IMG/VR virus record: IMGVR_UViG_2675903433_000037
From: a virus
Lineage: Duplodnaviria > Heunggongvirae > Uroviricota > Caudoviricetes
DNA: 26,727 bases
Strand: one strand, 5' to 3'
Both the position numbers and the translations under genes were made by a program. Below the pieces are notes generated by a model. That model was not told where the DNA came from, searched no databases, and was given only the letters and a program-made list of their open reading frames with translations. This document shows positions 4,466-6,153 of the stretch, piece after piece. How positions within the stretch are numbered: position 1 is the first letter of the stretch; every line of letters begins with the position of its first letter.

Positions 4466-5088
4466 GGCACGGGCTGCTGGCGCTGATTTGCTGGCTGTGT
4501 TGTGTTGTTGCCCATAGCGAAATGCTGAATGTCGAACAATCCGGGCTGTTTCGCGCCTGGTTTGTACGCATTGCACAAGAACAGCTCCGCCAGGGGCCAA
4601 GTCCACGCTGGTATCAGCAGGATTGTGCGGGCCTGGTGCGATTTGCGGCGAACGAGACGCTGAAAGTTCACGATAGTAAATGGCTAAAAAGTAACGGTTT
4701 CTCTAGCCAGTATTTGCCGCCAGAGATGACGCTAACACCTGGACAGCGTCAACTGGCGCAAAACTGGAATCAGGGGAACGGGAAAACCGGCCCCTACGTG
4801 ACCGCGATTAATTTGATTCAGTACAACAGCCAGTTTATTGGCCAGGACATAAACCAGGCGCTGCCTGGCGATATGATTTTTTTCGATCAGGGCGATGCCC
4901 AGCACTTAATGGTCTGGATGGGGCGTTACGTCATCTACCACACCGGAAGCGCCACGAAAACTGACAACGGAATGCGCGCAGTCAGTCTGCAACAACTTAT
5001 GACATGGAAGTTGTATATTAAAAATTTCATTAATTATCAATATGTTAATGTGCGCTGGTCATTATTAATCAAAATAAAACCATTATGA
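4462..5088 (+). CDS. yfaT: YfaT-like protein (DUF1175 family), about 208 aa
   Basis: Start overlaps the yfaA stop (ATGA) and the N-terminus is signal-peptide-like. The last ~25 codons are AT-rich and may be supplied by the prophage end. Confidence 0.7.
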
Positions 5089-6153
5089 TATTTCAATTTT
5101 GTCCCACTCCCGCCCGCGACTGTCCCTGTAACGCGCCGCCATTGAATCTGATTTATGCCCGAGAAGACGTTGAGCAAACTTATCGCCAATCTGATTCCGG
5201 TATAGCCTCGCCGACAGGCTGCGCAGTTCATGGAATGTTGGCGGGTCTCCATCAAATGAGAGTCCAGATGCATTTCTCGCCTTTGTAAAATACTTAGATA
5301 CTGTTTTCGGGGAAAGCGGTTCGTGATGCGTTGATGCAATTATTGTTTCACTGCCGCTGGCCTCCCTGCATTTCTGTAGTGTATCAGCCAATGAGATATT
5401 GAGCGCGTCAATCGTTAGCGTCAGCGGAATGGCGAGCTTAGCCCCTGTTTTACCCTGCTCAATGTGAAGATGGTTGTCGTTTATGTCTGACCATTTCATT
5501 CTGCATAAATCGCCTACTCTCTGCCCTGTAACGACAGCCAAATCCATTGCCAGCCTCAGCCAGATTGGGAGCGGTTCGGCTGCATGGTAAATCGCGACAT
5601 ATTCATTAGCTGTCAGTCTTGAACGCCTTACTTCTGATTTTGCTGTGCGGGTTGCTGTTACCGGATTCGTAGCCACATGCCCCTCGGCTATTGCCTCACG
5701 AAAAACGTCAACAAGGGTTGACCTGATTAATTTTGCGGAAGCCGCTTTACCTTCTGCTACGTAGGTGTTTAGCATTGCTGCCACCTCTTTCGTTGATATG
5801 TCAGCGAGCGGTTTGTCCGGCAATTTTCTTCGGATTGCCCTGATTTTGCTGGCGTAGTCGAGTAGAGTTTTCGGCCTGATACCCCTCTCGCTGAGGATTG
5901 TTTCATATCGGTCAAGCCACGCATGAAGAGTGATTGCGTCAGCGCCTTTAATTCTGTCTATCAGTGACTCACGCCTGTTCCCGGATAGCAACTCAATATT
6001 GGCCTGTATTGCTTCAGTGATTGCTATCCTCCTGTCTCGGCCTAATCCGAACTCTTTACCCGTCCTTGGGTCCCTGTAGCAGTAATATCCATTGTTTCTT
6101 ATATAAAGGTTAGGGGGTAAATCCCGGCGCTCATGACTTCGCCTTCTTCCCAT
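5083..6153 (-). CDS. int: Lambda-type integrase (tyrosine recombinase), 356 aa
   Basis: N-terminus '[55 protein letters not shown]' and C-terminal '[11 protein letters not shown]...LLGHKSD...REWDKIEI' match recalled lambda Int; the middle region differs. Confidence 0.95.

Follow-up and report, generated by a model that had tools for sequence, protein, structure and literature searches.

A prophage inside Escherichia coli yfaT: its four attachment sites, its HK022-class integrase and the probable role of the attP core in target choice

Why would a lambdoid phage have integrated inside yfaT, a protein-coding gene of Escherichia coli, and what directed it there? The question is raised by a 26,727-nucleotide stretch of DNA, IMG/VR record IMGVR_UViG_2675903433_000037 (referred to in full as the window), in which the integrase gene int adjoins the 3' end of yfaT. 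A first-pass annotation of this sequence had proposed a prophage junction at the end of yfaT and had considered the divergence of the integrase (Int) from that of phage lambda to be consistent with the use of a different bacterial attachment site, attB. Our analysis leads to a different emphasis. Very probably, window 4993-5095 is the attL site (B-O-P') of a lambdoid prophage that integrated in the Campbell manner through an HK022-class Int, and the choice of yfaT came from the core of the phage attachment site, attP.

The junction itself can be placed to the nucleotide (nt). In an alignment with the prophage-free gyrA-yfaA-yfaT locus of E. coli K-12, identity is 99.2% over window 1-5010 and homology ends exactly at 5010, which bears out the proposed boundary between prophage and host in yfaT. 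The gene as it now stands is a hybrid:

4462-5088, plus strand: hybrid yfaT open reading frame (ORF) of 208 amino acids (aa); residues 1-183 are of host origin (4462-5010), and 25 residues plus the stop are phage-encoded (5011-5088)

The annotated start is at 4462; the mechanical ORF list begins the hybrid at a GTG at 4435. Although the prophage had been described as abutting or overlapping the last codons of yfaT, the exchange point is 24 codons short of the native stop and 8 nt before the yfaS start annotated in K-12. When the translations are compared, K-12 YfaT has the same 183-residue stretch (with two substitutions) followed by 24 other residues. The match to the DUF1175 profile covers positions 20-225 of 226 in K-12 (195.9 bits) versus 20-202 of 226 in the hybrid (153.2 bits), a loss of the last 23 profile positions and 43 bits, in place of which the phage supplies 25 unrelated codons. 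As in gene-splitting elements, the product of the target gene is altered and its 3' end is not regenerated. The target is not a tRNA or tmRNA gene, since attB lies within a protein-coding gene; ARAGORN found no such genes across the whole window, in agreement with the earlier remark that the junction has no tRNA gene.

It had also been noticed that the last ~75 nt of the gene are AT-rich and unlike the rest. The contrast in composition is real (20.5% GC in the final 78 nt, 5011-5088, against 53.0% in the host part, 4462-5010), but the tail is the P' arm of the phage and not yfaT sequence. Were it instead native to a variant yfaT allele, with the phage inserted just downstream of the gene, RefSeq's annotation of a full-length-looking 208-aa DUF1175 coding sequence would be readily understood, and an uninterrupted locus might be expected to have the same 3' end. 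The uninterrupted K-12 locus, however, has a different one; attB is intact in 5,199 of 5,426 complete E. coli genomes, and in these 5,199 a K-12-type yfaT 3' end runs directly on to yfaS; at attR, the displaced 3' end can be found; the AT-rich tail aligns with the P' arms of lambda and HK022; and the DUF1175 match is truncated. We give the idea of a native tail practically no credence.

Two observations concern the tail as such. A run of five A in the P' arm (window 5020-5024) is one A shorter in many genomes of O26 (11368, EH2252 and 00_3230 among them), where the four-A version frameshifts the phage-encoded tail and the RefSeq hybrid DUF1175 protein has 201 aa, not 208 aa. Because this change in run length shifts its frame among genomes, the tail is evidently without protein-level constraint. 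On the minus strand of the P' arm (5062->5033) there is also a weak sigma-70-like match (ATGACC, an 18-nt spacer, GATAAT) that points outward, antisense to yfaT. It recalls HK022, in which an outward-reading promoter drives torS (PMC6814406), but it is a single weak match, the count does not exceed the shuffled expectation, and we claim no promoter here. A search for a terminator at the prophage/yfaT junction found none.

If 5010 marks the end of host homology, what kind of site lies around it? Phage-specific sequence begins at 5011, and the following elements can be laid out on either side of it:

4993-4999, plus strand: core-type half-site B, CAACTTA (host side), collinear with lambda C (CAGCTTT) and HK022 B (GCACTTT)
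5000-5006, plus strand: presumptive 7-bp overlap TGACATG (strand-exchange region), in register with TTTATAC of lambda and AGGTGAA of HK022 when aligned without gaps
5000-5010, plus strand: 11-bp identity core TGACATGGAAG, common to attB, attL, attR and attP; 15 bp with one mismatch, CTTaTGACATGGAAG
5007-5013, plus strand: core-type half-site C', GAAGTTG (reverse complement CAACTTC), aligning with TAAGTTG of lambda and HK022
5011-5095, plus strand: P' arm, from the alignment with the lambda P' arm, ungapped through core and arm, and a three-way alignment with HK022 and lambda attP
5035-5047, plus strand: putative H'-like site for integration host factor (IHF), TATCAATATGTTA, by collinearity with lambda
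5057-5066, plus strand: putative arm-type Int site P'1, GGTCATTATT, by collinearity with lambda
5066-5075, plus strand: putative arm-type Int site P'2, TAATCAAAAT, by collinearity with lambda
5077-5086, plus strand: putative arm-type Int site P'3, AAACCATTAT, by collinearity with lambda

All four sites of the Campbell scheme were recovered, and the quartet matches that scheme exactly. The first-pass annotation had suggested defining attL, attB and the core from a prophage-free locus and looking for attR at the other prophage end; the former succeeded with K-12, and attR was found in relatives, outside the window. In K-12, attB reads CAACTTA-TGACATG-GAAGGAC (with flanks, caaCAACTTA-TGACATG-GAAGGACacccgATG; the 21-bp attB(yfaT) is CAACTTATGACATGGAAGGAC). 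At window 4993-5013, attL is CAACTTA-TGACATG-GAAGTTG (with its flank, CAACTTA-TGACATG-GAAGTTGtatatt). The window has a single copy of the 11-bp core TGACATGGAAG, against 0.01 occurrences expected by chance; therefore, it holds attL only and not attR, and the attR sequences come from related genomes. In O111 11128 and O26 strain 20.1, attR is CTCCTTC-TGACATG-GAAGGAC (with flanks, tactCTCCTTC-TGACATG-GAAGGACacccgATG), and downstream of it stand the displaced last 24 codons of yfaT (a DUF1175 fragment in RefSeq) and then yfaS. The fourth site survives as an unsplit relic attP in O157:H7 86-24, CTCCTTC-TGACATG-GAAGTTG, which has the same P and P' arms and lies between nleA and a decayed int. Immediately left of TGACATG, attL has the A of attB and attR the C of attP; therefore, the left limit of the exchanged segment falls where the lambda model predicts. 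An insertion independent of Int, by transposition, illegitimate recombination or an event mediated by an insertion sequence (IS), might be entertained for a prophage that contains IS600 and rearrangements. Yet attB, attP, attL and attR exchange exactly at the lambda-register core, there is no target-site duplication besides the core, and the same position is occupied by two unrelated prophages, so that such an origin is scarcely conceivable.

The arms extend the likeness to lambda. When attL is aligned with lambda attP, core falls on core (CAACTTATGACATGGAAGTTG against CAGCTTTTTTATACTAAGTTG) without gaps through core and P' arm; the int stop is 72 nt from the junction, and the stop codon region overlaps the hybrid yfaT ORF by 6 nt. 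Aligned with attP of HK022 and of lambda, the reconstructed attP is collinear, with no more than a 1-nt indel, and it shares with them an identical P1 site, CAGGTCACTAAT, a P2-like GTGACT and a conserved hairpin upstream of P1. The names H', P'1-P'3, P1 and P2 are those of the lambda literature, applied here to putative sites. The half-sites of the yfaT system (CAACTTA, GTCCTTC, CTCCTTC and CAACTTC) are imperfect inverted core-type sites at a short common core, and all eight half-sites of the yfaT and HK022 systems share the form NN(A/C)CTTN. The hairpin, TTAGCGCAAG...CTTGCGCTAA (O111 11128 stretch L001, ~34680-34730; attR side, L004), is presumably the tI/sib element of int retroregulation; it ends up apart from int after integration, as in lambda.

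Which integrase, then, is encoded next to this site? The recombination genes are as follows:

5083-6153, minus strand: int, HK022-class tyrosine integrase of 356 aa, apparently intact, from Pfam domains and identities to HK022, lambda and Stx1a phages
6131-6349, minus strand: xis, excisionase (Xis) of 72 aa, overlapping the int start (PF07825, E = 4e-41)

Int has an arm-binding domain (PF09003, E = 7e-29), a core-binding region (PF02899 and PF22022) and a catalytic domain (PF00589, E = 4e-41). Against lambda Int it aligns without gaps at 76% identity and keeps R212, K235, H308, R311, H333 and Y342. With these domains and R-K-H-R-H-Y residues, the overlapping xis, the att quartet and arm-type and IHF sites at lambda-like spacing, the locus appears to be a heterobivalent system of the lambda family, and the initial assignment of the integrase to that type holds. 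The same annotation had called the N-terminus essentially that of lambda and the middle diverged. Residues 1-55 are indeed identical, and identity falls from 90.6% (1-64) to 69.5% (65-169); divergence is not limited to the middle domain, however, as identity is 74.7% over 170-356. Int thus combines a lambda-like N-terminus with a diverged remainder. In tblastn searches of phage genomes it is 98% identical to the integrases of HK022 and mEp235, and it matches those of four O26 Stx1a-converting phages (LC744181-LC744184) at every one of 355 aa. It carries D99, P282, K283, K287 and R319, at positions (99, 282, 283, 287 and 319) that we take to separate HK022 from lambda core specificity, which would make the window's Int HK022-type. 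Xis is one residue off HK022 Xis, and 70 of its 72 residues match lambda Xis. Judged from its sequence, Int is an HK022-class enzyme and no new lambda derivative: identity and specificity residues are those of the HK022 class, although the torS-torT site with AGGTGAA is not the one occupied, and neither the TTTATAC overlap nor the specificity residues of lambda Int sensu stricto (gal-bio attB) are present.

Evidence on target choice comes from phages that use this Int elsewhere. HK022 attB lies between torS and torT (PMC6814406), and we confirmed it in K-12 as GCACTTT-AGGTGAA-AAAGGTT, HK022 attP being ATCCTTT-AGGTGAA-TAAGTTG. The Stx1a phages of O26 are located at torS-torT as well (PMC10042803); in agreement with this, LC744181 has attL GCACTTA-AGGTGAA-TAAGTTG adjoining torS, and its Int equals that of the window in 355 of 355 aligned residues. 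Comparison of the two int-proximal regions divides this portion of the window in two:

5132-6177, minus strand: int and xis-start tract of 1,046 nt, DNA 100% identical to LC744181 and to the torS prophage of O26 00_3230
5000-5131, plus strand: yfaT-type att module, the only stretch differing from the torS-torT Stx1a phage in the int-proximal region, with 36 differences in 132 nt

The module spans the overlap and P' arm and reaches 16 codons into the 3' end of int, where the changes are synonymous except at the C-terminus (S-stop versus DK-stop). The overlaps themselves, TGACATG and AGGTGAA, differ at six of seven positions. Moreover, O26 strain 00_3230 (NZ_CP074967.1; L010, L011) has prophages at both yfaT and torS; they share 1,046 nt of identical int DNA, their Xis proteins are one residue apart and their differences are confined as between the window and LC744181.

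These data bear directly on the possibility that a lambda-derived Int with a diverged core-binding (middle) domain evolved a new specificity that directed the phage to yfaT. The drop in identity to lambda from 90.6% to 69.5% after residue 64, and an attB that is not that of lambda, would fit such a history. However, the divergence is simply the difference between lambda and HK022, as the 98% identity to HK022 indicates; phages at torS-torT use, with AGGTGAA, a protein that is the same in 355 of 355 aligned residues; and a second HK022-class allele is likewise found at yfaT. Since the same Int serves torS-torT phages, divergence of its middle domain does not select yfaT. The earlier supposition was thus correct in that attB is not lambda's, but Int divergence is not the cause, and we consider an evolved enzyme specificity very unlikely. 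In lambda, homology of the overlap is a requirement for recombination. The simplest reading of these sequences is that the attP core, not the enzyme, carries site specificity; it is apparently a handful of phage bases that determines the yfaT target. In experiments the 7-bp overlap of HK022 has proved promiscuous, as long as the two sites to be joined agree (PMC7736782).

Support for this reading of the att sequences comes from an independent case. In CFSAN029787 (NZ_CP011416.1; L012, L013), as in three genomes sharing its junction sequence, the identical yfaT core is occupied by a different prophage of ~43 kb, with attL CAACTTA-TGACATG-GAAGTTG and attR CTTCTTC-TGACATG-GAAGGAC. Its int is another HK022-class allele, encoding 357 aa with 10 aa differences from the window's Int and the same five specificity residues. 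The mosaic boundary is different, too: yfaT-type sequence continues for only about 60 nt past the overlap, and everything from P'1 on is 100% HK022-like. The prophage also has genes of baseplate/contractile-tail type and four tRNA genes, and an ipaH effector gene adjoins its attR.

A more complicated picture is offered by O157:H7. In strain 86-24 (NZ_CP038408.1; L008, 2790-3100), the only one in which we inspected the relic locus, the unsplit yfaT-type attP CTCCTTCTGACATGGAAGTTG, with full P and P' arms, sits in an effector-rich prophage (nleA, nleH1-2, nleF) next to an HK022-family int that is frameshifted and N-terminally truncated. P' arms ~80-90% similar to the window's occur in 322 genomes, nearly all of them O157:H7 among those listed. 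The distinctive P' arm was found only adjoining DUF1175/yfaT or as the O157 relic. The relic locus suggests that a phage of the yfaT type was taken up by another prophage.

Several points weigh against target choice by the attP core as we have described it. For the window's own prophage, attR is not within the window. A search of 50,697 phage records found no free phage with the yfaT attP core, the best match being HK022 at 82% in an alignment that starts only after the overlap. The yfaT half-sites end in C or A, those of HK022 mostly in T. Where the strands are cut, and that Int, IHF and Xis bind at the named sites, is predicted from the way the att site lines up with those of lambda and HK022. 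The int tract, identical over all 1,046 nt to that of a co-resident torS prophage, could have arisen by gene conversion once the element was in place; the int seen today would then not have to be the one that integrated it. Finally, the int allele that accompanies the relic attP is more divergent and decayed, and has A283 and R287. That an ancestral yfaT-specific integrase, or one of slightly different specificity, served the window's lineage seems improbable to us. We judge so mainly from the CFSAN029787 case and from the lack of any genome in which the relic allele occurs at yfaT: a chimeric query brought up the CFSAN029787 lineage but no yfaT prophage with the O157-relic int allele.

In its explicit form, this alternative holds that a distinct yfaT-specific Int, like the O157-relic allele, integrated the element and that int was later overwritten from a co-resident torS-torT prophage, with the result that today's Int may be incapable of acting on these att sites and the prophage may now be locked in. 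The sharp boundary at 5131/5132 and the 100% DNA identity over 1,046 nt to the torS prophage of the same genome would be expected after such a replacement; the window's int 3' end and P' arm are closer to the O157 relic than to HK022, the relic allele has A283 and R287, the yfaT prophage has been rearranged by IS600, and the O111 version is a 14-kb remnant. On the other hand, CFSAN029787 combines an independent prophage, host lineage, int allele (K283, K287) and breakpoint at the same core, which is hard to explain unless an HK022-class Int works on this core. Furthermore, the relic int is a pseudogene, so that A283 and R287 may be products of decay, the yfaT half-sites resemble those of HK022, and promiscuity of the HK022 overlap is documented (PMC7736782). 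On balance, we find replacement after integration rather unlikely, though less so than an evolved enzyme specificity.

Under integration by an HK022-class Int with the target given by the attP core, events at this locus may be pictured as follows. The phage would have entered by Campbell-type site-specific recombination, carried out by an integrase of the lambda/HK022 family together with IHF, with strand exchange within the 7-bp overlap TGACATG inside yfaT. Its attP would have had the layout of lambda and HK022 with matching spacing: P1, P2, the C-O-C' core, the IHF site H' and P'1-P'3, followed by int and xis. yfaT would have been selected by the attP core, whose different overlap needs a matching attB and whose half-sites, of the form NN(A/C)CTTN, resemble those of HK022. 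Integration would swap the last 24 yfaT codons for 25 phage-encoded ones, move the real yfaT 3' end and the ribosome-binding site and start of yfaS to attR, and place the whole prophage between yfaA-yfaT and yfaS-yfaQ-yfaP. Precise excision by Int and Xis would be expected to rebuild the operon. The window's Int is presumably competent on the yfaT att sites, and the insertion is likely to be polar on yfaS-yfaQ-yfaP.

For the host, the insertion removes a conserved part of DUF1175 and separates yfaS-yfaQ-yfaP from yfaA-yfaT. On the yfaA side the backbone comprises:

1-2628, plus strand: gyrA (host backbone), ORF of 875 aa, from the RefSeq annotation of the identical stretch in O111 11128
2777-4465, plus strand: yfaA (DUF2138), first gene of the yfaA-yfaT-yfaS-yfaQ-yfaP cluster, from Pfam (PF09909, E = 1e-288) and annotation

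The start of yfaS is annotated inconsistently: in K-12 (L002, 10403) it is an ATG 8 nt after the core, whereas PGAP places it in O26 and O111 at a GTG 90 nt downstream (attR, L004, 6005-6114). The K-12 ATG gives YfaS a signal-peptide-like N-terminus, which the GTG start would lack. It is plausible that GGAAGGA, within and just after the core, is the yfaS Shine-Dalgarno sequence; it overlaps the att core and is kept intact at attR.

A broader proposal can be built on these observations, one that we hold to be about evenly poised between right and wrong. Retargeting might occur without a change of recombinase, through a core-proximal attP module of ~60-130 bp (TGACATG and the adjacent P' arm) that has been joined to at least two HK022-class int alleles and has sent unrelated nleA/nleG or ipaH phages to yfaT rather than torS-torT. 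In O26 strains with both prophages, one Int/Xis pair would then serve two att systems that cannot cross-recombine, because their overlaps differ at six of seven positions. An induced Stx1a phage could then act in trans on the effector-carrying yfaT prophage, excising or mobilising it and rejoining the yfaA-T-S-Q-P alpha-2-macroglobulin operon.

How widespread is the arrangement, and what does the prophage carry? The yfaT-int junction is found in about 175-177 genomes (O111, O26, O103 and the CFSAN029787 group), and the torS junction in 386. Window 1-6905 is 99.99% identical to E. coli O111:H- 11128 and 1-8569 is 99.94% identical to O26 EH2252; the whole window was found contiguous in no complete E. 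coli genome of the collection. Beyond this left part the prophage is a mosaic with IS600. After xis come lambdoid early genes, among them two exo copies, bet, a CI-like repressor, O- and P-like replication genes and a phage porin. IS600 (IS3 family) occupies 9523-10786 in the early region (orfA 9587-9889, orfB 9925-10743) and has another position in EH2252. An exo-proximal segment is present three times within window 8511-13678 (8511-9521 vs 12011-13021, 99.7%; 10783-12009 vs 12453-13678, 96.7%; 8953-9521 vs 10783-11352, 96.5%), with two full exo ORFs at 10970-11650 and 12642-13319; the repeats look like an IS-associated duplication or a join of two related prophages. The nin/late-regulatory region contains a 115-nt direct repeat with 89.6% identity (20143-20257 and 22465-22579). 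The porin gene (24677-25759, minus strand, 360 aa, phrog_410), annotated as OmpC in related O26 prophages, lies upstream of the lysis genes. In O111 11128 (L001, 20649-34870), the yfaT prophage is only a ~14-kb remnant with int and xis at its left end and nleG and nleA at its right; the O26 yfaT prophage is larger and lambda-like.

The four-site att anatomy can be used for prophage typing in enterohaemorrhagic E. coli (EHEC) O26, O111 and O103, as well as in the ipaH-carrying CFSAN029787 and the three genomes with the same junction. The locus would also represent a natural example of a lambda-family integrase redirected by a change of the attP core alone, a principle already used in HK022 Int engineering. 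Type III effector prophages (nleA, nleG, ipaH) and Stx1a phages share one Int/Xis pair, from which excision cross-talk and virulence-gene mobility are predicted; the double lysogen O26 00_3230, in particular, predicts trans-acting excision between an effector-carrying prophage and a Stx1a phage. The split of the alpha-2-macroglobulin cluster into yfaA-yfaT and yfaS-yfaQ-yfaP is relevant to studies of this cluster in EHEC.

Where, finally, does this locus stand among known systems? The junction is an ordinary one and the yfaT site has already been catalogued; what is added is the exact att anatomy and the occurrence of an unchanged HK022-class Int at two chromosomal sites. yfaT is named among prophage-disrupted core genes (PMC3603311) and as a 'regulated gene integrity' candidate in the TIGER survey (PMC7192596); in their searchable text, the two papers describe neither the att anatomy, nor an HK022-class integrase, nor an Int shared with torS-torT; the TIGER supplements available as text do not mention yfaT. 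In an incomplete coverage of the literature, we found no paper that links yfaT prophages to HK022 Int or an unchanged HK022-class Int to two sites. Elements of the 'regulated gene integrity' kind (PMC7192596) split a gene that is restored on excision; here, 24 C-terminal codons are displaced, and precise excision would restore them.

The nleA-proximal region of O157:H7 86-24 has the same P arm, core and P' arm next to nleA, a cargo gene that is also at the attR end in O26 and O111, but its att is unsplit and embedded in another prophage, its int is frameshifted and truncated, and yfaT is intact in the O157 genome sampled. Lambda shares the three-domain Int with identical residues 1-55, nearly all of Xis, the core register, the arm layout and a C' one base off (GAAGTTG vs TAAGTTG); it differs in overall Int identity (76%), in the specificity residues, which are HK022-type here, in its overlap (TTTATAC vs TGACATG) and in attB. 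The O26:H11 Stx1a phages at torS-torT (LC744181-LC744184; PMC10042803) are identical in Int over 355 aa and in 1,046 nt of int DNA, and such phages co-reside with the yfaT prophage in 00_3230; they differ in their HK022-type overlap and P' arm, in their site next to torS and in an Int that ends in -IDK where the window's ends in -IS. HK022 itself resembles the yfaT system in Int (98%) with all five specificity residues, in Xis, in a collinear attP with the same P1 and similar P2, H' and P'1-3, in half-sites of the form NN(A/C)CTTN, and in a distance from junction to int stop of ~72-73 nt (73 bp in HK022, PMC6814406). The two differ in the overlap, AGGTGAA vs TGACATG, in the first ~130 nt after it, which are only ~75-80% identical, and in attB, which on the K-12 chromosome lies upstream of torS at ~1.06 Mb for HK022 and inside yfaT at ~2.33 Mb for the prophage described here.

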